Assembly: GCA_041586955.1 (NCBI GenBank)
Contig: JBFGZE010000077.1
Coordinates: forward strand, 1-16,879
Origin: Bacteriovoracaceae bacterium
GTDB taxonomy: Bacteria > Bdellovibrionota > Bacteriovoracia > Bacteriovoracales > Bacteriovoracaceae
Length of the DNA stretch: 16,879 nucleotides
Direction of reading: 5' to 3'
Shown: one piece after another, positions 1,286 through 16,879 of the stretch
Layout: each line of letters begins with the position of its first letter
Position numbering within the stretch: the stretch's first letter is position 1
Translations under genes and position numbers: made by a program
Notes under the pieces: generated by a model
Seen by the model: only the letters and a program-made list of their open reading frames with translations
The model's database searches: none
Told to the model about the DNA's origin: nothing

Positions 1286-3205
1286 TCACTCCTGTATTAT
1301 ATTTTTAATCATTGGCAATAAATGATCGAAATAACTAATCGATCCATCACGAGATAAATGTCCGGGGTCAACAAACATTAAATCCTTTGATTCATTATAA
1401 AAACTACATACACCTAATGGACAATAATAATCGGTGGGATCAACAATTGTGATATTATCGCTTTGAATCACTAATGCCTTATTAAGGTACTTTCTTTGTA
1501 TATTCACTCTATCAATGCCAACAAAGCAATCTTTACTTATAGCGTTTATGTAATTTCTCTTTAAACATTGCGCTGGGCTTATTTTAAAAAAAGGCAGGTC
1601 GTTCATTAATACCAAATGAGCATCTCTCCTCTCAATTTGAGAAACTAGAGTTTTTAAGTACTCCTTATAGGTCTTATAATTATTTTCCGTGATTGATCTC
1701 GCAAAAACTCCCAATACCAAAATATCGCCACGTCTAAGATTATTCACGATTTCCTTATTAACAAAATCATTATAAATTGAACAATTGGTTCTTTTCTCTA
1801 AGCTATTACTAATCATCGACTCCGGTCGATAGGAACATCCCGCGCCTGCGGTAATCGCGTTATAAGAGTAATCAATTTTCTTTGATATTTTTTCCAAAAG
1901 AGGTGTCCAATTCCCAGCATGACTATCCCCGACAACAATCATTTTATTTTTGCTCCCATGATTCTTTTGACAACCAATCAGGGCCGCCATTGAATCATAC
2001 CGGCTTTTATGACAACCAAATTCTGTTTCATTATTTGAACTCCACCAAGGTCTTTCGTCCCAGCCAGGTGTCTGGCTATAGCGAATTGTCGGCTTAGCTT
2101 CACGAAACTCACTGACCGAAAATAAAAATGCTATAACAAGCAACGACGAGGCACATGACCACAAAGACAAGCTTCGAAATTTCTTTGCATTTTCATGAAA
2201 ACGAATTTCACCAAATGGTTTTTCTATTAAGCGATACGTTAAGTAAGACAAGAAAAAACTCAGCGATATTAGGGATACCTTTACCTCATTGCTGGGATCG
2301 CCATAAATAATGAAGGCATATGATAAAAGTGGCCAATGCCATAGATATAAGGAGTAACTCAACACTCCGATTTGCTTAAATAACTTATTTGATAAAAATT
2401 TAGATAAAAAACTTTCTTCGCTTCCAAACGCGATCACCAGAGAAGTTCCAAGGACAGGCAATAAAGCAAGATAACCCGGAAAAACATTATTATGAGTAAA
2501 TGTGAATCCTAATATAATGAGTGCCATTCCACTGGCCGCATACCATTTAGCTTTAACGGTCTGGTTCAATTGAATATGCGGTACACTAAAAGCGACGATT
2601 CCCCCGGCCAACAACTCCCATATACGAGTCGGTAGCATAAAAAAAGTAAAAGATGAGTAATAAAATGATCCATATAAACAAATCGCAAAAGAGCTCAATG
2701 CGATAATAGATAAACAAAGCACCTTATTTAATTTGAATCTATAAATACAGGCCAAAAGAAAGGGATAAATGACGTAAAATTGTTCTTCCAAGCTTAATGA
2801 CCATGTATGCAGCAGCGGCTTTAAGTCTGAAGACTGATCGAAGTACCCGGACTCTCGCCAAAATAAAACATTCGACAAAAATAAGAGACTCGATACAACC
2901 TGGTTTTTTAATTGAACAAATTCCCGGTTATGTAAAACCAATGCTCCAAATGAAATGACCGCCGTTAAAACTATTGAGCAGGGGACAAATAACCTTTTGG
3001 CCCTATTCAAATAAAAGTTAACGAACGAAAATCTATGTTTCTCTAAATCATCCCTAATCTTACCTGAAATGAGGTATCCCGAGATAACAAAAAAGATGTC
3101 AACGCCGATAAATCCACTTTTAAACTCTTTAGGCCATGCATGAAATATTAGCACACTAATTATCGCTATTGCCCTTAGGCCATCAATATCGTCTCTTCTT
3201 TTCAT
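1286..3205 (-). CDS. OafA/OatA-type O-acyltransferase (acyltransferase_3 membrane domain fused to SGNH domain)
   Basis: N-terminal RDDIDGLRAIAII, GFIGVDIFFVISGYLI, PLLHTWSLSLEEQFY and SYSLYLWHWP, with many TM segments. The C-terminal SGNH domain has GDSHA and DxxH (DPGH). Confidence 0.93.
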   Translation of the reverse strand: MKRRDDIDGLRAIAIISVLIFHAWPKEFKSGFIGVDIFFVISGYLISGKIRDDLEKHRFSFVNFYLNRAKRLFVPCSIVLTAVISFGALVLHNREFVQLKNQVVSSLLFLSNVLFWRESGYFDQSSDLKPLLHTWSLSLEEQFYVIYPFLLACIYRFKLNKVLCLSIIALSSFAICLYGSFYYSSFTFFMLPTRIWELLAGGIVAFSVPHIQLNQTVKAKWYAASGMALIILGFTFTHNNVFPGYLALLPVLGTSLVIAFGSEESFLSKFLSNKLFKQIGVLSYSLYLWHWPLLSYAFIIYGDPSNEVKVSLISLSFFLSYLTYRLIEKPFGEIRFHENAKKFRSLSLWSCASSLLVIAFLFSVSEFREAKPTIRYSQTPGWDERPWWSSNNETEFGCHKSRYDSMAALIGCQKNHGSKNKMIVVGDSHAGNWTPLLEKISKKIDYSYNAITAGAGCSYRPESMISNSLEKRTNCSIYNDFVNKEIVNNLRRGDILVLGVFARSITENNYKTYKEYLKTLVSQIERRDAHLVLMNDLPFFKISPAQCLKRNYINAISKDCFVGIDRVNIQRKYLNKALVIQSDNITIVDPTDYYCPLGVCSFYNESKDLMFVDPGHLSRDGSISYFDHLLPMIKNIIQE

Positions 3206-3239
3206 TATAAATAATTCCTACTAAGCGTACGCACCAGTA

Positions 3240-4715
3240 CTATTGGGAGGTAAAGACACATAGGTTTTTAAATTGCTTCTTTTTCACTATTAAATGTTTT
3301 ATTTGATCATTAAAAATCCCTTTTGGTTTCCAAGATGAGCATGATGATCCCGGAATTATCGCCAGCTCGAATTCCACATTGTTTAAATTCGCATTTATTT
3401 TTTCAAAATAGTTTCTCTGAATATACTTAGAAAATTTGTAGGTAAACTCAACCCAAGGCCCTAAAACCGTCTGTGAATAAAAATGAACCGCGATACTCGA
3501 GTCTGGCGTATATACAGTCGCGTCAGGATAATTGGTTTTTATATACGTTTTTAATTCTTTGTAAGGATATTGCCTATAAGAATTGCCATATATAGTGCCT
3601 AAGGACTTTGTGATATCAACAGACAGAATAAGAAAACTTGAAATAGCGAGGACAGAAAATACTTTTTTCAATTCGCTGCTACTCTCATAAATGGCCTTCA
3701 AACCTGATGCCAAAAATAAGCTTTCAATCAAAATCATTATATAAAAATAATTAAGGTAAGCACCAACTTTCACTTGCCCTGCGATTCCGGTTAGACCAGT
3801 TAATAATATACATAATACGAATAAGAGTACGTGCTTTGATTTCTTTGAATACTCTCTCAAGCCTATTAAAAATAATATGTGGATGGGTAAGAATTTAAAG
3901 AAAATTATATTGATGACATTTGTTATCATTGTGTTGATGGCACTTAAGCTTATAAATCCCGCATTCGCCGCCAAAAAAACTTGCTCTAAATAGGTCTTTG
4001 GGAAAACGAGATATCCTAAAAATAAAAAGCCGGCGACAAAAATTGTACTTGATATAAGCATTAAGAAAAAATTTTTATATTGTTTTTTAATTAACAAATA
4101 CAGCCCACATGAGGCCAAAATAAAGATATGGGTTATTTTAAATTGAGGCGCTAGAGCGAATGCAATACTCGAAAATAGCAATGTTTTAATACTCGACTTA
4201 TTATCCTCCAAAAAGTCCAAGAATAGCTTTAATCCGAAAAGCTCAAAAGCAATGGCAAAGAAGTCAGGTCGATAGGAGATCGCGATAAATGGAAAAACTA
4301 AAAATAAGTAGATTCCTACAAAATATATTACATAATTTGTTTTTCTTACTTTTGAAATATAATTTTGATCAATCTTACTTAGAACAATGAGACAAAAGAG
4401 AAGGGCGGCCATCACTTGCGCCTTTGCAAAAAAATTAACCCAAACAATATCCGTTAGCCCTATGACCTTTAAAGGAAGGCCTAATAAATAAGGAAAGATT
4501 CCCCCATAGGGGCTAATCATTTCAGGAACACTTCCAAGCGTAGTAATATGGGGTAATCCATCAATTATCCTTAAGACATTATAGAGACCTATTGATTCTG
4601 CCCCATAGTTATAATACCCAGAAAAGAAAATTATAGATAAAACGAAGATTCCCAATAGGCCAAAAAGAGCATAACTTAAGAAATTATTTTTTTTAGATTT
4701 AAACAAAATATCCAT
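3240..4715 (-). CDS. Polytopic membrane protein, probable GT-C fold (ArnT/PMT-like) glycosyltransferase
   Basis: 491 aa with roughly 10-12 hydrophobic segments and a soluble C-terminal tail. An acidic residue sits in the first loop after TM1 (YNYGAES), followed by SPYGGIFPYLL, RPDFF and an intramembrane Lys (QFKIT). The ORF is solid; the function is inferred from this pattern and the glycan-locus context. Confidence 0.55.
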   Translation of the reverse strand: MDILFKSKKNNFLSYALFGLLGIFVLSIIFFSGYYNYGAESIGLYNVLRIIDGLPHITTLGSVPEMISPYGGIFPYLLGLPLKVIGLTDIVWVNFFAKAQVMAALLFCLIVLSKIDQNYISKVRKTNYVIYFVGIYLFLVFPFIAISYRPDFFAIAFELFGLKLFLDFLEDNKSSIKTLLFSSIAFALAPQFKITHIFILASCGLYLLIKKQYKNFFLMLISSTIFVAGFLFLGYLVFPKTYLEQVFLAANAGFISLSAINTMITNVINIIFFKFLPIHILFLIGLREYSKKSKHVLLFVLCILLTGLTGIAGQVKVGAYLNYFYIMILIESLFLASGLKAIYESSSELKKVFSVLAISSFLILSVDITKSLGTIYGNSYRQYPYKELKTYIKTNYPDATVYTPDSSIAVHFYSQTVLGPWVEFTYKFSKYIQRNYFEKINANLNNVEFELAIIPGSSCSSWKPKGIFNDQIKHLIVKKKQFKNLCVFTSQ

Positions 4716-5049
4716 CCTTGGCCTATTTATGCTCCTACAAATAAATACGATTATTTCAGGTATATGTATTAATTATAGATTAAAAATTATTGAGCTATTG
4801 CTGAAAGAATTTTTGACCTACTAAGAAATAAAGGAGATTGAACAAGTAAAACCAATGGCCTCACCCTATGAGGATTATGTTGTGTACCTTTGATTTGTAA
4901 TGGAATGAAAAGTGCGACTTCCTTTTCGAAATTGGCCGAACCCGACCAAAACATTTCGTATTTGAAAACGGTAAAAACCGCAAATTATTAATGAATTATA
5001 TAATAAAAGGAAAGCTTTAAAGAGGTTGGTTAACCCATTGAAAAAATAA

Positions 5050-5137
5050 TGGCGGAGAACAAGAGATTCGAACTCTCGAAGGGTTGCCCCTTACACGCTT
5101 TCCAAGCGTGCGCCTTCGACCACTCGGCCAATTCTCC
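5050..5137 (-). tRNA. tRNA-Ser(GGA)
   Basis: The reverse complement folds as a cloverleaf: acceptor GGAGAAT/GTTCTCC, discriminator G plus encoded CCA, D-loop AGTGGTCGAA, anticodon arm CACGC-TTGGAAA-GCGTG, long variable arm AAGGG-GCAA-CCCTT, T-arm GAGAG-TTCGAAT-CTCTT. Confidence 0.97.
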
Positions 5138-5148
5138 GCATTGATCAT

Positions 5149-5177
5149 GAAATAGCATAGTTGATCTAAGTTATCAA
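5149..5177 (-). promoter_or_regulatory. Putative sigma70 promoter of tRNA-Ser
   Basis: Minus strand reads TTGATA-17 bp-TATTTC with an extended -10 TGn, ending 11 nt upstream of the mature tRNA 5' end. Confidence 0.4.
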
Positions 5178-5243
5178 CAAACTTAACTAGCTTGAATCAT
5201 TTTAGTTCAGCAAAGACGCGGAGCAACATATGAATTATAATCC

Positions 5244-6389
5244 TTAATTTGTTTTTATTTCATTCAATTTGTCTTGATAAATTTTTAACGTTTTTTTATT
5301 AATTTCATCCCAAAGAAATTTTTCCGAGACCTCACGTATCAAATCCTTTGCTAGCTTATATTCATTTTCACTGAGCAATAATTGATTAATTTTGGAAATT
5401 AGTTGTTTATGATCCCCCCGAGGCACTAAAAGCTCCTTAGGTAAGATCGTATTTGGCCCCATTGTTTCGTAGGCGATAGAGGGAATCAATGCCGATACCA
5501 TTTCCAAAAGGCCAAAACCAAAACTTTCAAAATAAGAAGGAAAAATACCCAGCGTGCTTCCCTCCAACAATCGCGGCAATTCTTCCGGCCCAAACTTTGG
5601 CGTTACTTCCAAATATTTCCGTAAATCTTTGGGAAAATAATTGAGGACACTTTCTTCAGTAGGAAACATCGCTGAGGTACCTAAAAACTTAAATTTAACC
5701 TCCGGTATATTTTTTGCGACACCTCTTACAATATCCGGAAACTCAACCGCCCCTTTGCGACAATCAAATGTTCCCACAAATGTGATCACCGGACACTTTA
5801 AACTTCCTTGTTTAATATTTTGAAGTTCACTTATCCTGTCATCAAATAGGCCATAAGGAGAAAAAATAATTTTATCGCCGGAATGGCCGTGCTGAATCAG
5901 TTTATTTTTATCATCATTGTTAGGAACTGAGATCAAATCAGCGCTTTCCAAGGTTTTATTGGCCTGAGTTAACTTAAAAGCAGCTTCTTCTTTTCTTTTT
6001 TTTCCTTTAATAAGTTTTCCCACATAACTGCGAATTGTTTTGAATGCCGGAATTTTAACTGTATCAAGGTGATGGATTAGTAAGACTGAACGTGCGATTA
6101 AAAGTTTATCACGAGGGAACTCATGTCTTTCATAGGGGAGAAAATAATATTCATATTCGACAGCATCATACGATTGTATATTTTCTTGAATGTATTTTTT
6201 TAAGATGGGAGGAAATTGAATTATGATTTCTGCTTGATTTAAGCCTATATATTCAGGAAATATGTCTTCAATACCTATAACTGTAACATCATGACCTAAA
6301 TTACGATAACTTTCAGCTGTTTCTAAATAAACCTTTGCTCCTCCTAACATTTTAGTTTTGGGTAAATACGAGCACATTAATATTTTCAT
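5244..6389 (-). CDS. Glycosyltransferase family 4 (GT-B)
   Basis: MKILMCS...GGAKVY...GHDVTVI, FVGTFDCRKG, and the EX7E motif in PSYFESFGFGLLE. SD-like GGTGG upstream. Confidence 0.9.
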   Translation of the reverse strand: MKILMCSYLPKTKMLGGAKVYLETAESYRNLGHDVTVIGIEDIFPEYIGLNQAEIIIQFPPILKKYIQENIQSYDAVEYEYYFLPYERHEFPRDKLLIARSVLLIHHLDTVKIPAFKTIRSYVGKLIKGKKRKEEAAFKLTQANKTLESADLISVPNNDDKNKLIQHGHSGDKIIFSPYGLFDDRISELQNIKQGSLKCPVITFVGTFDCRKGAVEFPDIVRGVAKNIPEVKFKFLGTSAMFPTEESVLNYFPKDLRKYLEVTPKFGPEELPRLLEGSTLGIFPSYFESFGFGLLEMVSALIPSIAYETMGPNTILPKELLVPRGDHKQLISKINQLLLSENEYKLAKDLIREVSEKFLWDEINKKTLKIYQDKLNEIKTN

Positions 6390-6521
6390 ATATCAACCAC
6401 CGCCATTAAACGTGAAAACTCATTTCCTATTATAACTTATTTAAAAAGCTATATTATTAAGTTTTCCACATCCCTCTTATTCCGGTATGCTCTACTCAAG
6501 AAAGACTAATGATTAAGATAT

Positions 6522-6995
6522 TTATTTCAAATGGGACTTTCGCCTCTCTCTAAAAAATTGGCTTAAGATTTGTGAGCAATCATAATGAGAGACTCCACCC
6601 ATTACGGAAAAAGAATGATTTAAACGTGAATCTTTATTAAGATGATAGCCTAAGCTCAGCGCGCCTCCCTTCGGATCATAAGCACCAAATACCAATTTAC
6701 CAATTCTTGCTTGAACCATGGCCGCAAGGCACATCGGGCACGGTTCCAATGTAACAAATAATGTGCAATCTTGGAGACGCCAATTCTCAATAAGTGGCCC
6801 TGCCATTTGCATAATAAGCATTTCTGCATGACCGCAGGGATTATGGGTAGTTTCTTTAAGATTATGACCTTTCGCCAAAATTTTTCCATCCGCGGCAACA
6901 AGGACTGCCCCTATAGGAACTTCCCCTAGGCGGTAACCTTTATTGGCCTCATCTAAGGCCAAATTCATATACCATTGGTTATCTGTCGAAATCAC
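6522..6995 (-). CDS. tadA: tRNA-specific adenosine-34 deaminase
   Basis: MNLALDEA...GEVPIGAVLV, Zn motifs HAE and TLEPCPMC, NWRL, FGAYDPKGGA, LNH and LSQFFRERR. The GTG start overlaps the upstream TAG (TAGTG), with SD AGGA. Confidence 0.92.
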   Translation of the reverse strand: MISTDNQWYMNLALDEANKGYRLGEVPIGAVLVAADGKILAKGHNLKETTHNPCGHAEMLIMQMAGPLIENWRLQDCTLFVTLEPCPMCLAAMVQARIGKLVFGAYDPKGGALSLGYHLNKDSRLNHSFSVMGGVSHYDCSQILSQFFRERRKSHLK

Positions 6996-7720
6996 TATTT
7001 CATCCTATGGAGTTTCTTTTCTCTTAGCACAGACTTTCTATAATTCCATGTATTTTTTAATTCATTAAAACTTTTTAGAAATTCGTAACCATCCACTTGA
7101 AAGAGAACACCATAATTATAGGGGCGACCTAATGAGTATTGGCGGTAACTACGAATTATACATTTAACCTCAACACCATCGAGTGTCATTGCAGTAAGTT
7201 TGCTACCAATTGGAAATTTTTCAAAGCTGGCGAGACAACCTGCGCCTCTTCTTAAATCAACTAATCGCCCATCAAACTCTTTTCCTTCTTCATTTTTTAT
7301 TTTAACTTTTAAGTCATTGCGATAGCGAAAATCATATTCCCACCAACTAACAAAAGGATAATAAATAGGAGAGGACAGTACATAAATTTCTATTCCATGA
7401 AAGATCAGAGACAAAATATAAGATGTCAAAGCAAAATCATATTCGGCCTGAAACGTATAATGACCAATCCGGGATAAGATAAAAATCCATAAGAAAAATG
7501 AAAAGGTCCAAAAGCTATAGTAAAGTTTCTTTTTGACTTGAAAAATAATAAAAGAAAAGTAAACAAATCCAGCAAGAAAAATCACTGATAAAAACGAAAA
7601 ATTATCGAGTATAAAATCCGCAAAGAGGGCCAGTCCCAAAAAAAGGTTGCCAATACAATGAAGTATGGTCAAGCGATCTATTTCATTTTTTAACTTTAAC
7701 TTATCTAAAATAATTTGCAT
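6995..7720 (-). CDS. Membrane protein (about 4 TM) with C-terminal PilZ-like domain
   Basis: Four hydrophobic segments, then YYPFVSWWEYDFRYR...GRLVDLRRGAGCL...VKCIIRS...YNYGVLF, a PilZ-like beta-barrel pattern with degenerate c-di-GMP motifs. SD GAGGA upstream. Confidence 0.6.
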   Translation of the reverse strand: MQIILDKLKLKNEIDRLTILHCIGNLFLGLALFADFILDNFSFLSVIFLAGFVYFSFIIFQVKKKLYYSFWTFSFFLWIFILSRIGHYTFQAEYDFALTSYILSLIFHGIEIYVLSSPIYYPFVSWWEYDFRYRNDLKVKIKNEEGKEFDGRLVDLRRGAGCLASFEKFPIGSKLTAMTLDGVEVKCIIRSYRQYSLGRPYNYGVLFQVDGYEFLKSFNELKNTWNYRKSVLREKKLHRMK

Positions 7721-8126
7721 GGACCCTATCCTCTTCTAAGTGTTATTTTGATAAGCAGGCCTATCTCTTTAATACCAGCAAAGTCAAAAAAACCTACACT
7801 TAATATATATAATATCGAAAGACTTAACGTCTTACTTAACCATACTATTAAAACCAAACGTGCAATAATTGAAAACTAAAATTAAAAATTCTTGCAGTGG
7901 AAGTCATGATAAAACGCCCAGACTATTTTTTTTAAGCTGGCCCGGTATACCAAAACTTGACAACTTTCTAAATACATCAAATTGAATGAGAGGCCTCGTA
8001 AAAATTGGCCTCATTTTATAAATCAATGGTAAATGAGCGACAATACGCTCAAAGATGCCAAAGAGGTTGGTCAAAATGCCCCTTCTAAAGACGATCAAGG
8101 CCATAAGCATATAATGACAGTTAAAC

Positions 8127-8154
8127 GGTGGATAATATTTTGCTGTTATCCACA
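8127..8154. promoter_or_regulatory. Inverted pair of DnaA boxes
   Basis: GGTGGATAA (8127-8135; reverse complement TTATCCACC, 1 mismatch) and a perfect TTATCCACA (8146-8154), 10 bp apart, in a gene-poor region. Confidence 0.5.
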
Positions 8155-8265
8155 GGTTAGTAAATATAAGGATAAGAAAAAAAATTCCTCGAAAAAAAGG
8201 GCCCACAAATAAAGTCGAAATTTGCTTTTTCTGTAACTTCTCTCTGAGTTGGACGAGGGTCACTT

Positions 8266-8285
8266 TATGACAAAGATATGACAAA
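8266..8285 (-). promoter_or_regulatory. 11-bp-period direct repeat resembling a Pho box / OmpR-PhoB family site
   Basis: TATGACAAA at 8266-8274 and 8277-8285; the minus strand reads TTTGTCATA-TC-TTTGTCATA. Confidence 0.35.
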
Positions 8286-8515
8286 ATAAGCGAAGTATTC
8301 ATGACTCGGCCATTTAATATAGTAAATTTATCATAGCTTTGGGGATCCAGCGTTCTTACCGAGAGGATTTTTAACCTATTGAAAAGAATGGGGGGCATCA
8401 AAATAGTTTTTGGCCCTTGAGATGCTTTTACCATTATGGCCTTGCTTTCATTAGTCATAAGTTTTTGATTTTATTGTAAATCAAATAGGAGAGAAGGATA
8501 GAAGGAAAAGTTTTC

Positions 8516-8549
8516 AAAAAAAAACCCTCAAATAAATTGAGGGTTTTTT
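8516..8549 (-). terminator. Rho-independent terminator of tRNA-Arg (potentially bidirectional)
   Basis: Perfect stem AAAAAACCCTCAA-ATAAA-TTGAGGGTTTTTT, 1 nt after the tRNA CCA. It gives a U9 tail on the minus strand and U6 on the plus strand. Confidence 0.9.
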
Positions 8550-8550
8550 A

Positions 8551-8627
8551 TGGCGCAACCGGCAGGAGTCGAACCTGCGACCACCTGATTCGTAGTCAGG
8601 TACTCTATCCAGCTGAGCTACGGCTGC
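8551..8627 (-). tRNA. tRNA-Arg(ACG)
   Basis: Reverse complement: acceptor GCAGCCG/CGGTTGC, G plus CCA, D-arm GCTC-AGCTGGATA-GAGT, anticodon arm CCTGA-CTACGAA-TCAGG, T-arm GCAGG-TTCGACT-CCTGC; 77 nt. Confidence 0.97.
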
Positions 8628-8636
8628 GTAGGGTTG

Positions 8637-8665
8637 TTTATAAAGTTAAAGATGCAAAGAATCAA
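8637..8665 (-). promoter_or_regulatory. Putative sigma70 promoter of tRNA-Arg
   Basis: Minus strand reads TTGATT-17 bp-TATAAA, 9 nt upstream of the mature tRNA, with an AT-rich UP-like tract upstream. Confidence 0.55.
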
Positions 8666-8706
8666 GTTCAAAATAAAATATTCTCGTCAATCTTTGCGCA
8701 CTGCAG

Positions 8707-10059
8707 CTATCGGCAATTTGATAAAATCCATACGCTAGAACGTTTCAACCAATTAAAATAATTAAAGGCCATCATCCATCTTGGGTAAGTAGAGGATATA
8801 ATTTGGCATTGTCGCTTTTTATTCAAGAGCTCAAAATCGGTTATGTTTTGAGTGAGGTAATGGCCTGGCCCAAAATCTTGATGCTTTTCTATCTCCATGT
8901 CAGACCTTTTATAGACATCCATTTCCAAAATTTTATTATCATTCATTTTATACAAAGTCTTAATTTCTTTTTTCTGCCATAAATCCTGGTATATCAACAT
9001 AGGTTTGTAGATAGGAAAAAAAAGAAAAGGGATTACAAGAGCATTGGTTCCAATAATTACTTTAGTCCATTTTTGATAGCGGGCGGCCTTCTCGCTCGCC
9101 ATAATAATTAAAAGAAAGGGGAGAAGCGGGAATAAAAAGCGCAGCTCCTTATGACCAATTATTTGGTGAATCGCAAAAAAAGGTAATAAAGATAATAATA
9201 AATATTTAAATTTTTTATTTTCTTTCCAATTGATTAATTCATCTTTTAGACACCAAAAAATCCCAATCCCCCAAAAAGGTATGAGTTTCAAAAGAGCTTT
9301 TTTAAAATAATAATACCAGGGGGAAATACCAAAATGGTTAACCTTTCCCTCAATTAAATTAACTCGAAAATAATTCCATGGGGTGATCGCCAATTCTCCA
9401 TAGCCCCAAAAATCAACACAAATCATCACAGCGCAGGAGATCATAACCCCTAAAATTAATGGCCATAAAAGTTTGCGATATTTAATAAAGGCAAAAATCA
9501 ATAAAGGACCTATTAAAAGCGCCATTTGAAAGCGCAAAAAAAAGGTCAATCCCACAAGTAGACCCGAGAAGAATGATGCCCATTTTTTTTCTTTTAACAG
9601 AAAAGTGATGGCAAAAATAAAAGTCATCGATGCCCAATTTTCAGAAGAGGTCCGGGCGTGCATTAATAATAATGGCCATGACAACCCTAGAAAAATGATG
9701 AGATTTTTATCATTAAGCTTAGATGAAAATATTTTGCGACTTATTTGAATAAGAGAATAAATACCCAAAAAAGCGAATAATGATGAGACGACGCGACAAA
9801 TCAAGGCCAAGATAAAAGGATTTTGTATCCCTAAAAATTTTAAGGGCGCCATGATTATGTAAAATAAAAAAGGTAAAGACCAGGGACGGATTTGCTCGTG
9901 ATACTCCCAGGTGAATTGATAATTAGAAATTAAATTATGTTTAAAAAAAGCATAATCGAGGGCATAATATTGTTCATCTGGATGGAGAAACCCTATTGAG
10001 AATAGGGGAATCAATAAATGCAATAAAAGGGATACACCCAATACTCTTTTTTCTAACAT
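8707..10059 (-). CDS. Alg9/PIG-B-like (GT22) membrane mannosyltransferase
   Basis: TM1 is followed by HPDEQY...TWEY...IRPW, then RTSSEN, LRFQ, VDFWGYG...PWNYFRVNL...FGISPWYYYF and HKELRFLFPLLP. This is the motif series of PIG-B/GPI10/Alg9 family enzymes. Confidence 0.8.
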   Translation of the reverse strand: MLEKRVLGVSLLLHLLIPLFSIGFLHPDEQYYALDYAFFKHNLISNYQFTWEYHEQIRPWSLPFLFYIIMAPLKFLGIQNPFILALICRVVSSLFAFLGIYSLIQISRKIFSSKLNDKNLIIFLGLSWPLLLMHARTSSENWASMTFIFAITFLLKEKKWASFFSGLLVGLTFFLRFQMALLIGPLLIFAFIKYRKLLWPLILGVMISCAVMICVDFWGYGELAITPWNYFRVNLIEGKVNHFGISPWYYYFKKALLKLIPFWGIGIFWCLKDELINWKENKKFKYLLLSLLPFFAIHQIIGHKELRFLFPLLPFLLIIMASEKAARYQKWTKVIIGTNALVIPFLFFPIYKPMLIYQDLWQKKEIKTLYKMNDNKILEMDVYKRSDMEIEKHQDFGPGHYLTQNITDFELLNKKRQCQIISSTYPRWMMAFNYFNWLKRSSVWILSNCR

Positions 10060-10072
10060 AAGGCACTTTTTT

Positions 10073-10918
10073 ATGAATAATTCATTTAATGTTTTTTGTT
10101 CACGTCGGCGTTGGCTTAAAAAGCTTATTTTACCTCTACTCGATGAGACTGCCTATATTGATCTGAAAAAAAATGACCTAAGAATTCATTTTAATCCTAA
10201 AGATTTACGGGGGCCCTCCTTTCATCTCTCCTTTGGCGAAGAGGATGGCTTTAACAATTACGAATTGGCCGAAAAAGAAGAGATCGTTGCGGCACTTAAA
10301 GAAGGGGGTACCTTTATTGATATTGGTGCGAATATAGGACTTTTTTCTTTTTATATTTCAAAATACCGACCAAGTTGCGCCATTTTCTCTTTTGAACCAG
10401 ATAAACTGACTCGAAAATGCTTAGAATTAACAAAAACAAGCAACTCCCTTGATCATGTTCATATTTCATCCTACGCCATCGGTGCAAAAGATGAGATTTT
10501 AAAGCTCTATAAATCTGGTCTTAATGATGGTGGGCATTCTCTTAAAAGTGATCTTGCAAACCAAACCTCGTATGAAGAAGTTCAGGTGAAACCTCTGTCC
10601 AGCGCCCTGGGTTCAAATATCAAAAACATTCAAGTGATTAAAATTGATGTAGAAGGTGCCGAACTGAGTGTTTTAGAAGGCTCTTTAGATATTATCAAGG
10701 AATGGAAGCCTATGATACTCATTGAAACTGATAATGAAATACTAAGTAACGGGCAAGGAATTATTCAATTTTTTGAAACTCATTTTAAGGGTCGCTATCA
10801 TGTCCGCACACCTGGAGATCAGAAGTACTATCAATACGATGAAATTAAAATATTGGCGAAAAAAAGGGCATCCAATGGACACCCTCTTAATAATTATATT
10901 TTTGAATTTATGGCCTAA
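10073..10918 (+). CDS. FkbM family methyltransferase
   Basis: FIDIGANIGLFS, FSFEP, IKIDVEGAELSVLEG and KPMILIE. Confidence 0.92.
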   Translation: MNNSFNVFCSRRRWLKKLILPLLDETAYIDLKKNDLRIHFNPKDLRGPSFHLSFGEEDGFNNYELAEKEEIVAALKEGGTFIDIGANIGLFSFYISKYRPSCAIFSFEPDKLTRKCLELTKTSNSLDHVHISSYAIGAKDEILKLYKSGLNDGGHSLKSDLANQTSYEEVQVKPLSSALGSNIKNIQVIKIDVEGAELSVLEGSLDIIKEWKPMILIETDNEILSNGQGIIQFFETHFKGRYHVRTPGDQKYYQYDEIKILAKKRASNGHPLNNYIFEFMA

Positions 10919-12604
10919 TTAACGTTGGGCCATTTCGAAATGAACCTTACGCCCTTTATACTTATGGTTTTTAACACCGCTAAATTTTTCAAATGAATCC
11001 TTTGGCACGTCAATAAAACTAAAGCGCTCTTTAAGTTCAACATTTCTAATATTTTGTCTCTTCACTCCAGAAATAGTCGATACTTCATCAAGAAGGCTAT
11101 TTAAATGTAAACCGTCTTTTTTACCAACGTTTACAAAAAGGCGAACGTTATCACTATTGGTTCTTCTTCTTTGTCTAGGACCTCTATCTGATTGGCCTCT
11201 ATTTCCTCTATTGTCTCTACTGTCTCTACCACCATCTCTACTACGGGCACCTCTAGTATGAAGCTCCTCTTCAAGGTTGGGAAGATCATTTAAACGGCGA
11301 AACTCTTTATTATACTTCCAAGTAAAAACTACTTTTAACAATTCTTCTTTATTAAGAGCACTAAATTTCTCTTGAAATTGAGAGAAGATCGCGTCTACTT
11401 GAAAATTTTCTCCTTTACCGAGGACAGCTTCAATCACGTTTTCAACACCTTCAAGGTCTTTTGACACAATGACATTTTTTAAGCTTTCGACAGAGGGAAG
11501 ATCACATTTTTTAACCACTGAGTTGGTAAACTTTTCTAAGCGACGAAAACGATGCATATCTCTTGGGTCCACTAAAGTAATGGCCACGCCCTTTTGACCT
11601 GCACGACCAGTACGGCCGATACGGTGAACATAGGACTCAAAATCTTGAGGAATACCTAAATTTACAACATGAGTAAGATCGGTCACGTCGATCCCTCTGG
11701 CCGCAACATCAGTACAAATAAGAAGTCTTGATTTACCTGACTTAAAACGCTTCATCGCCATATCGCGATCCATTTGCTTAAGATCACCGTGTAAAACTTC
11801 AACACTATAGCCCTTCTTTAATAATTCCTCAGACAGCTCACGAGTGTCTTTACGAGTATTGCAAAAAACAATTCCATAAAATTTATCATCGCTATCAAGA
11901 ATTCTAGATAAGGCCTCTTTTTGAAACCTTTGCCTAACAATATGATAACGTTGATCAATACTGTCATTACTCATACTTTTGCGCTCGACCTTAAAAACCT
12001 CAGGGTTTCTAAATTGCTTTTTAATGAGGTCTAGGATTGGACGTGGCATAGTCGCTGAAAACATCCATAAGCGACTATCATCTTGAACCAAGCTAAGGAT
12101 CTCTTCTACATCATCAAAAAAGCCCATATTAAGCATTTCATCAGCTTCATCTAAAATTCCATAATTTACATTATCGAATTTGAGAACTTTTTGTCTTAAA
12201 AGGTCAAGCATCCGCCCTGGCGTACCAACAATAATTTGTGGTCGCTTTCTACGAATATCTTGCATTTGCTTTGTGTAAGAAACACCACCAAAAATAGCAA
12301 CAGATGTTAACTCAGTATATTTTGAAAGTTTCTCAACTTCACGCGATACCTGATTGGCCAATTCGCGGGTTGGGCTCAAGATAATGGCCTGAATATTTTT
12401 ATTTTTAGGGTCTAATTTTTCAAGTAAAGGTAAAACAAATGCTGCGGTTTTTCCTGTCCCTGTTTGCGCCTGTCCGACAAAGTCTGTGTCATTTGCCGTA
12501 AGGTGACCAATGGCCTTTTCTTGAATTTCGGTTGGTTCCGTATATCCTAATTCATTAATAGCTTTTAATAAGTTGGGGCCTAGGCCCAATTGTTCAAAAT
12601 TCAA
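10919..12604 (-). CDS. DEAD-box ATP-dependent RNA helicase, DeaD/CsdA-like, with C-terminal DbpA-type RNA-binding domain
   Basis: Q motif (GYTEPTEIQ), AQTGTGKT, PTRELA, TPGR, DEAD, SAT, TDVAARGID, HRIGRTGRAG, and C-terminal RLFVNVGKKDG...FSFIDV. The start is placed at TTG 12604 (giving MNFEQLGL) because GGGAG lies 7 nt upstream; the ORF track's ATG at 12637 lacks a clear SD. Confidence 0.93.
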   Translation of the reverse strand: MNFEQLGLGPNLLKAINELGYTEPTEIQEKAIGHLTANDTDFVGQAQTGTGKTAAFVLPLLEKLDPKNKNIQAIILSPTRELANQVSREVEKLSKYTELTSVAIFGGVSYTKQMQDIRRKRPQIIVGTPGRMLDLLRQKVLKFDNVNYGILDEADEMLNMGFFDDVEEILSLVQDDSRLWMFSATMPRPILDLIKKQFRNPEVFKVERKSMSNDSIDQRYHIVRQRFQKEALSRILDSDDKFYGIVFCNTRKDTRELSEELLKKGYSVEVLHGDLKQMDRDMAMKRFKSGKSRLLICTDVAARGIDVTDLTHVVNLGIPQDFESYVHRIGRTGRAGQKGVAITLVDPRDMHRFRRLEKFTNSVVKKCDLPSVESLKNVIVSKDLEGVENVIEAVLGKGENFQVDAIFSQFQEKFSALNKEELLKVVFTWKYNKEFRRLNDLPNLEEELHTRGARSRDGGRDSRDNRGNRGQSDRGPRQRRRTNSDNVRLFVNVGKKDGLHLNSLLDEVSTISGVKRQNIRNVELKERFSFIDVPKDSFEKFSGVKNHKYKGRKVHFEMAQR

Positions 12605-12736
12605 AATAAAACTCCCATGGTTAACATTCCGCACCATAACTTAAGTAGGCGTGGAATGATATATAAAATTTAAATTTTCACACCCTAGCAGCAGCATAAA
12701 CTAATTTTGTTTTGCCACTAAGTTGCTAATATTATT

Positions 12737-13750
12737 TCAGGCAATAAACGCCTGGCCGCCCCACTTAAGAATGCAAGCTGCTGCATAATCACCTGCATGG
12801 GAAAAGCCAGACAAGCAAATAATGTCGCCTTCCTGCACCCGGTTATTATGAATATTTTCACAAAGGGTAACAGGAATACCTGCGCCAAATAAGTTGGCGT
12901 ATTTTTCAAATGTATGGAGGTGTTTCTCTTCGGATAATTGCAACGCTTCTCGCCAATTTCTCAAAAAAAAGATATTGGGCTGATTGGTAATAAGATAATC
13001 CAAGTCTTCTGTTCTAATACCGGCCTCTTTACAGGCCTGTTTAGAAATAGTTGGTACCAATTTATTACCACGTACTGTAATTTTCGCTGTCTTCGCTGGA
13101 TTAAAGTCGATATGACCACTAGATTGACCGGCTTCCCACCACTTTCTACCGCATTCAAAACTCGCATACATATCGTTTGAATAAGCGGGATAATTCTCCT
13201 GAACAAGGGAAATTATCGGGGATTTATCATCATTAACCAAATAAGCAACACCACAACCGTCACCAGGAATCGCTGCCTGGGGCCGTGTTTTCACATCTTC
13301 CTGAGAAAATATACGACCTGCTGCGCTTTGTACAGAGGCAACTAAGGCAGTTTTGACATTATTGGCCGTCATAAGGGCCCGGGCCAGGTCAATCATATGA
13401 ATAAAAGAGACACAACCGGTATTATGGAGATCAAAAATATATTTTACCTTTGCCCCCAATTGTTCAGAGACAACAGCACCACAACCATTAAAAGGCTGAT
13501 CAGGTATAGAGACATTAGTGATAATAATATCTATGTCCTTGCCACCATCGAGATTCAACTCATCCATTATCTTTTTACTCGCACGAACAATTAAATCAGA
13601 TGCATTATCATCTCGACCAAGATGCCGCCGCTTATTGGTTCCCATAAACATTTTATTTTTGCTTTCTTTTAGATTTTGTCCGAAAAACTCATTATCAATT
13701 TCACGGATCGGCATTGCAGTTGCGATGGCAGCGATACTAATGGGTTTCAT
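12737..13750 (-). CDS. FabH-like 3-oxoacyl-ACP synthase III family condensing enzyme (NzsJ/CqsB1-like)
   Basis: Thiolase-fold motifs DLHNTGC113, PGDGCG, ITN256QPN and YAN286LFGAG. The start overlaps the upstream stop (ATGA), with SD GAGGGG. Confidence 0.85.
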   Translation of the reverse strand: MKPISIAAIATAMPIREIDNEFFGQNLKESKNKMFMGTNKRRHLGRDDNASDLIVRASKKIMDELNLDGGKDIDIIITNVSIPDQPFNGCGAVVSEQLGAKVKYIFDLHNTGCVSFIHMIDLARALMTANNVKTALVASVQSAAGRIFSQEDVKTRPQAAIPGDGCGVAYLVNDDKSPIISLVQENYPAYSNDMYASFECGRKWWEAGQSSGHIDFNPAKTAKITVRGNKLVPTISKQACKEAGIRTEDLDYLITNQPNIFFLRNWREALQLSEEKHLHTFEKYANLFGAGIPVTLCENIHNNRVQEGDIICLSGFSHAGDYAAACILKWGGQAFIA

Positions 13751-14397
13751 ACCGACCCCTCTTCAATAAAAGGACCAATTGGCAGATTGTGAGCATGACG
13801 AAATTCCAAAATTCGTTTTAAGTTCATTAACTCAACCATATGGCCCGCGTAGAACATATCCCAAAAATCTCCTACCCACGGCCTTCCCTTGGGTGCTTTG
13901 TCTTTATAGGGATTATTATCGTAATGAGGATGACGGCAATTCTGCCAAAAAACTACTGAGCCAGGTTTATTCAAAACTAAGTCCGCCGGAACGATACGAT
14001 TGAGATAAATCATCCATAAATCATCTCCTTGATCCCAGGCGCAATGATAATCAACTAATAAGGCCTCTTTGTTTGTCACCATTTTGCAATATATTTTAGT
14101 GTTATCCCCAATTTTATCTTTGCCGACAAAGAGCCCATTGTTATCCGCCGGAACTAAATCACGGACGCTATAAGACCATTCTTCCAAAGAATGAACATTG
14201 GACATATAGTCAAATACCTTTTCAGGTGGGCAGTCAATATAGGTATGAACAGGACAAAATTCACCATATAATTCATCATGGGGGTAAACCGCATGAGTTA
14301 GGTCTGAGAGGATTCCTCCCATTTCATCTTTAGAGGTAATCTCAACTCTTTTTAAATTTGGTATTTTCGACATTTCGACTTCATTAATAATTGCCAT
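13747..14397 (-). CDS. SRPBCC-superfamily cyclase/aromatase (NzsI/CqsB2 carbazole synthase-like)
   Basis: START/SRPBCC-type opening (TYIDCPPEKVFDYMSNVHSLEEWSY), then DYHCAWDQG..LWMIYL, KPGSVVFW.NC.HP.YD.NPY, WVGDFWDMFYAGH and a terminal helix ELMNLKRILE. SD AAGGAG. The subfamily call rests on recalled motifs plus gene context. Confidence 0.75.
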   Translation of the reverse strand: MAIINEVEMSKIPNLKRVEITSKDEMGGILSDLTHAVYPHDELYGEFCPVHTYIDCPPEKVFDYMSNVHSLEEWSYSVRDLVPADNNGLFVGKDKIGDNTKIYCKMVTNKEALLVDYHCAWDQGDDLWMIYLNRIVPADLVLNKPGSVVFWQNCRHPHYDNNPYKDKAPKGRPWVGDFWDMFYAGHMVELMNLKRILEFRHAHNLPIGPFIEEGSV

Positions 14398-14414
14398 CGA
14401 TAATCTCCTTAAAC

Positions 14415-16052
14415 CTATTGAAAAGTGCTAAAGGGTGGAACTTCATTATGATCTATATTTAAACTAAAAAGTATTGGTCCATTTTTATTAGTGGATTTTT
14501 TTAATGTTTGTTTAAGCTCTTCAATCGAATTGACTTCATAAGCGGTGAGGCCAGGATACATTTCATTCATTCCTGCACCGATCATCGTTTTTTTAAAAAC
14601 GTTAGTCCCTGTATTGGCCCTATAAAAAACTTCTTCCCGAACATGGCACATACCATGAGAGTTATTATTAAAGATGAAATATGTAATCGGTAAATTATGT
14701 TCAACAGCGGTATGAATCTCCATGCCTTTCATATAAAAGGAACCATCTCCAGAAAAAACATACGTTCTATTGTTCGATAAAAAACAGGAGCCAATTGCCG
14801 CACCAAAAGTATGGCCCATCCCGCCCATTGATAAGGCCATTGAGAAAAGACCTTTTCCTGATACTTTTAAATGGTGAACGACGTTAGCACCAGTATTCCC
14901 GGCATCGACAAAAATATCTGCATCGCGATCAATATATTTATTTAATGTCCCTAAAATGGCTTGAGAACTGAAACTCGTTTCATCATGGACTAATTCATTA
15001 TCCTGAACAGTAAAGTCAGTAAGAGCTGAAATGGAATGAGTTCCAAGTTCAATTTTTTCGACCACATTATTAAAAAATGACTCATTAAGCGTCGATATCG
15101 TCGTCATCGATTTACTTTCGAGAAAAGAGGTACTCGTATTAATATTAATTACTTTTTTACGTAAAAGAAGATCCTCAATTTGGTATCTGGCCAAATAGGG
15201 CATCCTCGTGCCAATCGTAATCACTAATTCTGTCGTTTCTAAAAAGCGCTTTACCTCTGTATGCCCCATGACACCACAAACCCCCAAAAAGCGTGGTGAA
15301 TAATTATCAAAAGATCCTTTACCTTCGGGAGTTACTGCGACATGGCCACCGGTATATTCAATAAATTTTTTAAAAGCGAAAGATTCTTTCAGAGATTTGT
15401 TAAGTTCACCCAATATAATAAGAGGGGGTTGAACGCAATCCTCTAAAGCATTTAATAAGAAAGTTATATTTCCTTGTTCAATGGCATTAACCTTGTCGAC
15501 CACTGGAGTCGCTTCTATCTTTGGTAAACATAATAATTTTTTTGATAAAAGGTTCTTTTTAAGCAAGAGAACACAAGGTCCTCTTTCTTTTTGGGCCAGA
15601 GTAAATAATTTATTTAAAGTTTTAATAGTATCAATCGGCCCGTCCGGCTTTGCGCATGAAAGAGTGACTTGAGAAAAAAGATCTTTCGCGTTCACCCTAG
15701 AACTAATCCCTGAGCTGTCTTGAAATCCACCTTTTCCCTCTAGCGACTGGTCTGTTTGACCAACTAAGGCCATTAGCGGGATTTCACTTTCTAAAGATTC
15801 AACCAATGGTGAAATTAAGTTAAAGGCGCCACCTCCTGAGGTGGAAAAAATAACTCCCGGTCGATTCGTTTTTAAATAATAGGCTTGCGCCATAGCGACT
15901 GAGGATGATTCATCCTTCGCCAGAACAATCTTAATTTCTCCATCTTGATCTGCCGCAATTAACAACTCTTCAATATTAGCACCACTAACACCAAATATAT
16001 GGTGAATATCATTGCATTTTAAAAATTGAATAATTGCCATTGCGGTTGTCAT
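14415..16052 (-). CDS. Thiamine diphosphate-dependent carboligase, AHAS-like (NzsH/CqsB3-like acyloin synthase)
   Basis: IFGVSGANIEEL, catalytic Glu48 (LAKDE), STSGGGAFNL, GGFQDSSG, DAGNTG, MGGMG and the ThDP motif GDGSFYM...NNNSHGMC. SD AAGGA. No ilvH or ilvC nearby. Confidence 0.88.
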   Translation of the reverse strand: MTTAMAIIQFLKCNDIHHIFGVSGANIEELLIAADQDGEIKIVLAKDESSSVAMAQAYYLKTNRPGVIFSTSGGGAFNLISPLVESLESEIPLMALVGQTDQSLEGKGGFQDSSGISSRVNAKDLFSQVTLSCAKPDGPIDTIKTLNKLFTLAQKERGPCVLLLKKNLLSKKLLCLPKIEATPVVDKVNAIEQGNITFLLNALEDCVQPPLIILGELNKSLKESFAFKKFIEYTGGHVAVTPEGKGSFDNYSPRFLGVCGVMGHTEVKRFLETTELVITIGTRMPYLARYQIEDLLLRKKVININTSTSFLESKSMTTISTLNESFFNNVVEKIELGTHSISALTDFTVQDNELVHDETSFSSQAILGTLNKYIDRDADIFVDAGNTGANVVHHLKVSGKGLFSMALSMGGMGHTFGAAIGSCFLSNNRTYVFSGDGSFYMKGMEIHTAVEHNLPITYFIFNNNSHGMCHVREEVFYRANTGTNVFKKTMIGAGMNEMYPGLTAYEVNSIEELKQTLKKSTNKNGPILFSLNIDHNEVPPFSTFQ

Positions 16053-16207
16053 AAATAATCCTTAACCACAGAGTACACGGCGAATAGAAAATGATGTCCC
16101 AATTTTGTAATACTTATGTATTGTACAATTCTTAGACAAGCAAAAACTGCCTATAAATACGGGCACTTAGTGCCAAACATAGGTATCAAGAGATGCGGGA
16201 GAAAAAT

Positions 16208-16879
16208 TTAATTGGTCTCTATTAGGCGCATGATTATTGTCGGCCCGGTCTTGCCGTAAAACTCATAACCCTTAGATTTTAAGAATTGTAAACTTGATGA
16301 TTGTTGCAAATCAAAAATATCAAAGTGATGATCTTCAAAAGCAATAACCCGTGGTCGAATCGTCGAAAAATCAATCGTTTGTAAAACGACTTGGTCAACA
16401 CCTTCTATATCAATGTTTAAAAGATCAATAGTTCGATCCATTAAATTATAATCGGATAAACAATCGCTAATATTTATCGTTTTCAACTTATGCTTTTTTA
16501 CTAAGCGATGACCACGGCCCATCACTTCCTCTGCCATTTCTCCATCAATGGTATTAAGAGTTGGAGCATCAAATTCGTAAAAATCAACATTAACGCCTGA
16601 TTTCTCAGCGATACAGGCCTCTATATTAATATCTTCTGGCCGTAAGCAATTGAATATGTCCATCGCACCAGGTTGGGCATCAATATTGATACCACGCCAA
16701 CCCTTTTGATAAAAATGGTAAGTATTGGAATAGAAAATTGGATGATGAGCTCCAATATCGATAAAAAAACCATCTGCCTTATGCTCAAAAAGAGAGCGTA
16801 AAGTCATGTCCTCTCCAAATTGGGAATGTGATAAATGAAAGCTTGGAAACTTATTGATTCTTAATGGCGCCCAAAGCCT
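16208..16879 (-). CDS. FkbM family methyltransferase (5'-truncated by window edge)
   Basis: The frame stays open upstream of the ATG at 16807 to the window end (RLWAPLRINKFPSFHLSHSQFGED-MTL), including the family's SQxGED motif. Also GFFIDIGAHHP...SNT...GWRGINID, LLNIDIEG and RPRVIAFE. Confidence 0.9.
   Translation of the reverse strand, partial: RLWAPLRINKFPSFHLSHSQFGEDMTLRSLFEHKADGFFIDIGAHHPIFYSNTYHFYQKGWRGINIDAQPGAMDIFNCLRPEDINIEACIAEKSGVNVDFYEFDAPTLNTIDGEMAEEVMGRGHRLVKKHKLKTINISDCLSDYNLMDRTIDLLNIDIEGVDQVVLQTIDFSTIRPRVIAFEDHHFDIFDLQQSSSLQFLKSKGYEFYGKTGPTIIMRLIETN

Follow-up and report, generated by a model that had tools for sequence, protein, structure and literature searches.

Among bacteria, carbazoles have been described from actinomycetes and a small number of cyanobacteria and, to our knowledge, the core machinery that builds them has been worked out for just two closely related Streptomyces pathways, those of carquinostatin (cqs) and neocarazostatin (nzs). 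This core is encoded by three tightly linked genes, for a thiamine diphosphate (ThDP)-dependent carboligase (CqsB3/NzsH), a condensing enzyme of the ketosynthase III type (KSIII; CqsB1/NzsJ) and a cyclase (CqsB2/NzsI). The activity by which NzsH and CqsB3 are recognized is the coupling of indole-3-pyruvate with pyruvate, and that of the CqsB2/NzsI family is the cyclization, without a cofactor, of the KS product to a carbazole. The PDB entries 6ipv and 6ipw are structures of CqsB2, the Streptomyces exfoliatus carbazole synthase. Here, we analyzed a stretch of DNA of 16,879 bases (the window), which is the whole of contig C77 in a genome bin (3.46 Mb in 194 contigs) from a Bacteriovoracaceae bacterium, and in which members of the same three enzyme families are likewise tightly linked in a single operon. 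In our view, with a probability of roughly 0.6, this operon specifies the core enzymes of a carbazole pathway of the CqsB3/CqsB2/CqsB1 (NzsH/I/J) type, and its host is a marine representative of the Bacteriovoracaceae. Clusters of NzsJ/I/H homologues have been noted before in Streptomyces cattleya, Sorangium cellulosum and Scytonema, as listed in section 4 of the 2020 review by Kobayashi and Kuzuyama (PMC7466098), and because Sorangium and Scytonema appear in that section, occurrence outside the actinomycetes is already in print.

The operon consists of three head-to-tail open reading frames (ORFs) on the minus strand that together span 3.3 kb and are referred to below as the triad. The first encodes the ThDP-dependent, CqsB3/NzsH-like carboligase (545 aa, 14415..16052), the second a CqsB2/NzsI-type carbazole-synthase homologue with a predicted Bet v1-like fold (the cyclase; 216 aa, 13747..14397) and the third a FabH-like KSIII that falls on a sister branch to CqsB1/NzsJ (337 aa, 12737..13750). 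As read directly from the sequence, a 17-bp gap (14398-14414) lies between the TAG of the ThDP gene and the ATG of the cyclase gene, and the cyclase and KSIII genes overlap in an ATGA at 13750-13747. All three genes are preceded by a purine-rich Shine-Dalgarno-like site located 5-7 bases 5' of the ATG, namely AAGGA (16059..16063, minus strand; 6 nt 5' of the ThDP-gene ATG), AAGGAG within the 17-bp gap (14405..14410, minus strand) and GAGGGG in the 3' end of the cyclase gene (13756..13761, minus strand). The three genes probably form one translationally coupled operon, and the gap, the overlap and the presence of a Shine-Dalgarno site for each gene agree with the first-pass annotation, made by a model from the DNA letters alone.

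The cyclase matched no family in a Pfam search of the window proteins. In a phmmer search against the PDB, CqsB2 (6ipv_A) was its sole match up to an E-value of 10 (E 1.7e-47, covering residues 19-201 of 216). An AlphaFold2 model built from 15 homologues (pLDDT 87.4, pTM 0.87) gave 6ipv_A as the top Foldseek match as well (E 3.7e-19, TM 0.71), with the next matches, at about 5e-7 and thus twelve orders of magnitude weaker, being generic PYL/Bet v1 proteins. The predicted structure presents the features that define this family, i.e. a Bet v1/aromatase-cyclase-like fold with an N-terminal helical arm. The SRPBCC identity assigned in the first-pass annotation thus holds, through the CqsB2 match and the predicted fold rather than through Pfam, and the comparison with CqsB2 that it proposed returned CqsB2 as the top fold.

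The residues proposed to be catalytic in CqsB2 are Glu105, Tyr144, Tyr172, His206 and Glu209 (PMC7466098, section 2.1). These were mapped by way of the cyclase of a Streptomyces locus, L098, which shares about 98% of its residues with CqsB2 (526 bits), and they correspond to D94, Y131, Y159, H186 and E189 in the window protein, such that four of the five are identical and the fifth is changed from Glu to Asp. Y131, Y159, H186 and E189 are invariant in all 82 cyclases of the window's branch, and the position of Glu105 is occupied by Asp in 81 of the 82. Judged by its sequence, the 216-aa protein is a cyclase of the CqsB2 type that lies outside the clade of the characterized enzymes. Natural fusions of KSIII and cyclase also exist (P0128, P0193 and P0210, 549-587 aa), and a complex predicted for the window KSIII and cyclase scored 0.16, against a mark of 0.32, which counts neither for nor against such a complex. 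Two fragments, P0162 and P0204, fuse the C-terminal domain of the ThDP enzyme to the N-terminus of the cyclase, and may be gene-calling artefacts. A cyclase homologue in one genome of the host's family (G459:C2:774445-775050) carries a single in-frame TGA, which may reflect a pseudogene or a sequencing error.

As the L098 cyclase is nearly identical to CqsB2, its neighbors (gene order KS-cyclase-ThDP, plus a second β-ketoacyl synthase III, KASIII) were used as stand-ins for CqsB1 and CqsB3. The window ThDP enzyme contains the three Pfam domains TPP_enzyme_N, TPP_enzyme_M and TPP_enzyme_C (E 3e-25, 1.5e-24 and 3.7e-14, respectively), together with the cofactor motif GDG435...NN463 and Glu48. 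It scored far under the cut-off of every NCBIfam model for acetolactate synthase (ALS), pyruvate oxidase or ScyA, reaching 174.8 bits with the IlvB model TIGR00118, for which the cut-off is 538.35. A quick maximum-likelihood tree was calculated from 32 of the 79 triad enzymes, with 11 ALS and other ThDP paralogues from five genomes as the outgroup. In this tree, the 32 triad-linked and three CqsB3-type enzymes form one clade (SH-aLRT 99), within which the window enzyme belongs to subclade A and the CqsB3-type enzymes to subclade B. The best solved relatives of the window enzyme are BbmA and CsmA (PDB 8x3x and 8x3z; E 5.5e-40 and 1.8e-30), with plant and bacterial ALS structures matching less well (E 3.6e-27); as BbmA and CsmA are known here by their depositors' names only, and the literature searched gave no function for either, no function was transferred from them. 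A likeness to scytonemin biosynthesis, where a ThDP enzyme (ScyA) couples aryl-pyruvates and a cyclase (ScyC) follows, is seen in weak NCBIfam matches. Membership in that pathway was, however, excluded, with 111.9 vs. 1020 bits for ScyA, 124.6 vs. 1000 for the ScyA-related model and 23.3 vs. 400 for ScyC, and we know of no KSIII in scytonemin biosynthesis.

The KSIII contains the Pfam domains ACP_syn_III and ACP_syn_III_C and scored 115-124 bits with the FabH models TIGR00747 and PRK09352, for which the cut-offs are 292 and 249. At the FabH motifs HQAN and GNT it reads TNQPN and ANLF, and a separate FabH-like gene is found on contig C21 of the host genome. In a tree that also contained four other proteins (the host FabH-like protein, another KS and two of the CqsB5 type), the 79 triad KS and three CqsB1-type enzymes united against these four (SH-aLRT 95), and a motif of the FSHAGD type, including the invariant His318, is common to the triad KS and the CqsB1-type enzymes. 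The window ThDP enzyme and KSIII are thus nearer to the CqsB3 and CqsB1 types than to ALS and FabH, and the cyclase fold is shared with the cqs/nzs systems. Accordingly, the ThDP enzyme is very unlikely to be an ordinary ALS and the KSIII groups with the CqsB1 type and away from FabH, as the first-pass annotation had supposed. Its carbazole-type interpretation finds support in the cyclase match, fold and residues and in both trees, but the catalytic His of the condensing enzyme has been replaced.

This replacement is the rule in the window's branch. In the column of the catalytic His, the window KSIII reads ITNQPN, the three CqsB1-type enzymes read ITHQPN and FabH reads HQAN; Asn is found in this column in 78 of the 79 triad KS (the remaining one has a gap), whereas His is present in all three CqsB1-type enzymes, in the CqsB5-type enzymes and in the host FabH-like protein. 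His43 is conserved without exception in the 79 triad KS; the same column holds Phe in the CqsB1-type enzymes and Trp in the host FabH-like protein. Among the KS compared, the three characterized-type Streptomyces enzymes with His are hence the exception and the Asn form is the usual one.

Several points weigh against assigning the operon to a carbazole pathway and should be considered together. First, the active site of the KSIII is Cys113-Asn256-Asn286, as opposed to the Cys-His-Asn of CqsB1 and FabH, and one residue is inserted on the N-terminal (5') side of Cys113; because Asn256 stands in for the catalytic His and an extra residue precedes Cys113, the reaction of this enzyme may differ. 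Second, identity to the L098 orthologues is modest, with the cyclases sharing 43% of their residues, the ThDP enzymes 30% and the KSIII enzymes 26%. Third, a quick cyclase tree places the CqsB2-like representative P0150 away from the clade of the window, at the end of a long branch, although P0150 sits there among long divergent branches, whose placements are unsure. Fourth, the choice of aryl-pyruvate, be it indole-3-pyruvate or another, cannot be read from the sequence of the ThDP enzyme. Fifth, as compared with the cqs-type loci, the window has no dedicated acyl carrier protein (ACP), no priming KASIII of the CqsB5/NzsF type, no aminotransferase (CqsB7), no prenyltransferase and no cytochrome P450 (P450); in the host genome, the best match to the cluster-linked aminotransferases is only 26-29% identical and no P450 match was found. 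Finally, in a literature search from which subscription journals were mostly absent, we found no product reported for any member of the window's branch, no characterized member of the Asn-type KS branch and no carbazole or such cassette from Bdellovibrio-like organisms. The eight papers that mention both carbazole and Bdellovibrio deal, to judge from their titles and the opening of their abstracts, with the degradation of pollutants or with unrelated subjects. Other differences from the characterized systems are that the gene order in the window is ThDP-cyclase-KS rather than the KS-cyclase-ThDP of the cqs-type loci, and that the host is a low-GC, Gram-negative member of the Bacteriovoracaceae rather than a Streptomyces. 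At the level of sequence, the window genes are a sister branch to the characterized cqs/nzs enzymes, with an altered condensing enzyme.

The first-pass annotation named no such product from an organism of this type; the cassette itself, however, is not rare. A word-indexed protein search yielded 579 cyclase relatives, and an exhaustive search of 50%-identity representatives yielded 152, of which 25 were at E <= 1e-30. When one genome per prokaryotic species was scanned with a pattern built from a 15-row cyclase alignment, at least 599 matches were obtained, and at least 593 cyclase-bearing species genomes, from eight or more phyla, were confirmed. All counts of linkage and of KS state given here rest on the best 80 of these at least 593 loci. 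The titles of the genomes among these 80 include Bacteriovorax/Bacteriovoracaceae, Bdellovibrio, Oligoflexus (Oligoflexia), Spirochaetia (Spirochaetota), Planctomycetota, Myxococcota, Acidobacteriota, Burkholderiales and a Legionella-labelled bin, as well as many actinomycetes, among them Streptomyces, Kitasatospora, Micromonospora, Nocardia and Mycobacterium. In 76 of the 80 loci, ThDP and KSIII genes lie on the same strand as the cyclase gene and within 1.5 kb of it, in the order ThDP-cyclase-KS in 63 and cyclase-KS-ThDP in 13. The four exceptions are L013, which is cut at the cyclase, L017, which meets a contig end, L019, a 3.4-kb contig, and L075, where the cyclase stands alone. In L075 (Mycobacterium shimoidei; cyclase at 7947-8612), no ThDP or KSIII gene is found in the 16.6-kb locus, making this the sole full-length locus of the 80 that lacks the partner genes.

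These uncharacterized cross-phylum triads share with the window both the linkage and the Cys-Asn-Asn signature of the KS, and belong to the same branch, with the window cyclase being 51-76% identical to other uncharacterized members. Two genomes of the host's own family present a gene order identical to that of the window. The nearest relative among the matches listed is L006, with identities of 74% for the cyclase, 41% for the ThDP enzyme and 57% for the KS. L006, a locus with 42% GC, comes from a bin titled Candidatus Anammoxibacter sp., a label that is odd beside the Bacteriovoracaceae-type relatives, and its triad is followed by genes for a methyltransferase and a P450. Even in Streptomyces, 34 of the 38 cyclase homologues found in a sample of 401 genomes of the genus belong to the window's branch and only four are of the cqs type, defined here as E <= 1.2e-67 to P0150. 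It can be imagined, albeit tentatively and with rather more doubt than confidence, that the characterized Streptomyces cqs/nzs systems are a divergent minority and that the window represents the main cross-phylum form, in which a Cys-Asn-Asn KS is possibly aided by His43. The lipocarbazoles of Tsukamurella, cited in PMC7466098, might be linked to the window's branch, although this is speculation.

Genes accompanying the triad were surveyed in chosen ORFs of 11 + 13 of the 80 loci. In L004, L008, L009, L010 and L011, a gene for a class I/II aminotransferase immediately precedes the ThDP gene; in L043, L053 and L062, one immediately follows the KS gene, and in L035 one is nearby. L023 contains a class III aminotransferase. 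P450s are present in L004, L006, L008, L009, L010 and L038, and S-adenosylmethionine (SAM)-dependent methyltransferases in L005, L006, L025, L035 and L038. In L038 (from the bin titled Legionella sp.), positions 3201-10573 contain genes for an O-methyltransferase, a Glu/Leu/Phe/Val-type dehydrogenase, the cyclase, the KSIII, the ThDP enzyme and a P450, where the amino-acid dehydrogenase likely replaces the aminotransferase as the entry enzyme. The Nocardia and Mycobacterium loci L043, L053 and L062 consist of the triad plus the aminotransferase, and loci with the triad only are also seen (L014 and L015, within the ORFs tested). Beyond the three core genes that the window displays, most of the cross-phylum relatives inspected thus possess an aminotransferase and, in many cases, a P450 or a methyltransferase. 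As the contig ends 827 bases upstream of the operon and as relatives usually carry such extra genes, the description of the operon as minimal or stand-alone in the first-pass annotation is not established.

The chemistry that we propose is modeled on the carquinostatin and neocarazostatin pathways. Tryptophan would be converted into indole-3-pyruvate, the presumed substrate of the ThDP enzyme, by a housekeeping aminotransferase, given that the window lacks a dedicated one. The KSIII would then be charged at Cys113 with an acyl or 3-hydroxyacyl group, donated by a thioester of ACP or coenzyme A (CoA), and would condense this group decarboxylatively with the acid substrate, provided that the Asn-for-His enzyme performs the same reaction as its His-containing counterparts. 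Since the window encodes neither an ACP nor a priming KASIII, the acyl donor would probably come from fatty-acid synthesis; in the description given in section 2.2 of PMC7466098, the cqs pathway itself borrows FabG, FabD and a phosphopantetheinyl transferase (PPTase). The cyclase would close and aromatize ring A of the unstable KS product, and the expected product would be a 1-alkyl-2-methyl-3,4-dioxygenated carbazole, as the catechol or the ortho-quinone. The linked aminotransferases and dehydrogenases of the relatives suggest that the pathway starts from an amino acid, without indicating which one.

A different outcome would be that the same enzyme logic yields another product, either because the ThDP enzyme accepts a different 2-oxo acid (an aliphatic one, phenylpyruvate or 4-hydroxyphenylpyruvate) or because the Cys-Asn-Asn KS is non-decarboxylating, such that a non-carbazole aromatic or heterocyclic ring is formed. 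We consider this unlikely, yet to be taken seriously. The window's branch is separate from the characterized cqs/nzs enzymes in the trees, the KS site is altered, with N256 in place of His and an invariant H43 that the CqsB1-type enzymes do not have, and the ThDP enzymes diverge strongly even among close kin, being 41% identical where the cyclases are 74% identical. At the same time, the cyclase residues that are proposed to act on an indole-derived intermediate are all kept (with Asp for Glu at one of them). As ring closure by CqsB2 relies on the nucleophilic C2 of indole (PMC7466098, section 2.1), a plain phenyl ring would not easily serve as a substitute.

The altered KS site could also mean that the KSIII is an acyltransferase that O-acylates the acyloin, giving an indole acyloin ester, with the SRPBCC protein merely serving as a binding protein or chaperone. 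The His that is replaced is the one on which FabH-type enzymes depend for decarboxylative Claisen chemistry and, according to section 2.2 of PMC7466098, the products of CqsB1/NzsJ rearrange spontaneously in vitro to indole-containing esters when the cyclase is absent. Such strong cross-phylum conservation of the cyclase's catalytic residues (four positions unchanged in 82 of 82) would, however, not be expected of a passive binder, and the KS-cyclase fusions likewise speak against such a role. An ester pathway thus appears improbable to us.

Of comparably low probability is the view that the operon is a remnant, decaying or incomplete, from which no product arises in this host because the aminotransferase, acyl-carrier and tailoring partners are missing. 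The partner genes usual in relatives are an aminotransferase and often a P450; the host has no close aminotransferase orthologue and no P450 match, the G459 cyclase with its in-frame TGA shows a family member that may be decaying, and the distribution of the cyclase in the host's family is patchy, with the gene being found in 17 of 237 genomes (11 of 145 high-quality genomes and seven of 69 genera), including 11 of 29 genomes of one genus. Against this stand the three intact frames with their coupled starts and Shine-Dalgarno sites, the intact catalytic residues and the existence of triad-only loci elsewhere. Moreover, housekeeping aminotransferases and the acyl-ACPs of fatty-acid synthesis could supply the substrates, as the comparison with the characterized pathways suggests. 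The composition of the genes is also that of the genome. As compared with 1705 long host ORFs, the three genes present z-scores for GC content at third codon positions (GC3) of -0.28, -0.03 and -1.35, and codon-usage index percentiles of 0.64, 0.62 and 0.93, and since both measures are typical of the genome there is no compositional sign of recent import. The first-pass annotation was thus right with respect to codon usage, but the long residence that it deduced does not follow when only 17 of 237 family genomes contain the cyclase, a patchiness that gains as well as losses could explain.

A role in primary metabolism was considered as well. In the host genome, which is estimated to be 88% complete (2% contamination; 39.3% GC), no second ALS-like gene and no ilvD were found and the ilvC-like match was under the cut-off, and in a 99% complete kin genome (G019), the triad ThDP enzyme is the sole ALS-like match; the lack of a further ALS-like match in both genomes, and of an ilvD match in the host, would be in line with a predator without its own synthesis of branched-chain amino acids. 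That the operon would encode an ordinary ALS, a FabH and a lipid-binding protein unrelated to them, all merely adjacent, can hardly be credited, for although ALS and FabH are the best NCBIfam names of the two genes and the host has no other ALS-like gene, their scores are far too low (175 bits where the ALS model demands 538, and 124 bits where the FabH model demands 249), a separate FabH-like gene exists on C21 and ilvD was not found, the trees set both enzymes apart from ALS and FabH and the triad is linked in 76 of 80 loci across phyla.

With regard to its surroundings, the operon is followed, after a 99-bp gap, by a gene for a DEAD-box RNA helicase (10919-12637) and preceded by a gene for an FkbM-family methyltransferase (16208-16807), both on the operon's strand. 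The latter is the last gene before the end of the contig, and the upstream boundary of the cluster thus lies beyond the window. The FkbM methyltransferase was tried and rejected as a conserved cluster member, as it had no tblastn match (E <= 1e-3) in the other triad loci searched, and it may have a lineage-specific role. The flanks had been described as unrelated to the operon, which is borne out by the helicase downstream and by the lack of a counterpart of the FkbM gene in other triads, but the upstream side is cut by the contig end and this part of the description is therefore incomplete. The 155-bp intergenic region upstream of the ThDP gene (16053..16207, minus strand) is presumed, from its position only, to contain the promoter. 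A weak terminator-like hairpin at 16174-16162 in this region would, again judging by position only, terminate the upstream FkbM gene. Consensus scans revealed no excess of either element over shuffled sequence, with 11 promoter sites where 15.5 were expected and three terminator sites where 3.3 were expected.

As to the origin of the DNA, the best-matching named homologues of the window proteins come from Bacteriovoracaceae-type bins and the family kin are titled Bacteriovorax or Bacteriovoracaceae, in agreement with the non-actinobacterial host that had been deduced from the sequence. Operon DNA of at least 99% identity is present in contigs of three marine-metagenome DNA runs of one single study, and no RNA run is listed as containing the operon. 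One such contig, of 4.4 kb, runs from the helicase gene through those of the KS and the cyclase into the last part of the ThDP gene, and the run that contains it may be the window's own source.

Elsewhere in the window, a 450-aa protein (8707-10059, minus strand) matches the Alg9-like mannosyltransferases (GT22, PF03901, E 1.9e-39), a mainly eukaryotic family. Its gene is surrounded by genes for a glycosyltransferase, an acyltransferase (AT3-SGNH), GalE and an FkbM methyltransferase, and the region resembles one for surface polysaccharide. This second FkbM gene (10073-10918, plus strand) and that at 16208-16807 on the minus strand are not truly similar, the best BLASTP match between their products being at E 0.033. 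Three minus-strand ORFs, at 3240-4715 (491 aa), 6995-7720 (241 aa) and 7904-8458 (184 aa), had no Pfam or NCBIfam match, and the first of these shows atypical codon usage, in the 3rd percentile of the genome.

Our analysis implies that carbazole-type machinery is widespread and that, among the loci inspected, its common form differs from the form that has been studied at the active site of the condensing enzyme. The window operon bears on the question of whether a KASIII can condense without a catalytic histidine and, being small, intact and low in GC, with three genes in 3.3 kb, it would be a convenient template for heterologous expression. Should the window indeed represent the main form of this machinery, acyl groups taken straight from fatty-acid synthesis would lead to long-chain or other non-cqs carbazoles, or to another ring system. 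The specialized metabolism of Bdellovibrio-like predators has barely been described, and this operon is a concrete candidate for a small-molecule pathway in these organisms. Under the same assumption, its product would be the first carbazole-type specialized metabolite of such a predator and, as a redox-active quinone or catechol, could possibly play a role in predation or in defence against oxidative stress.

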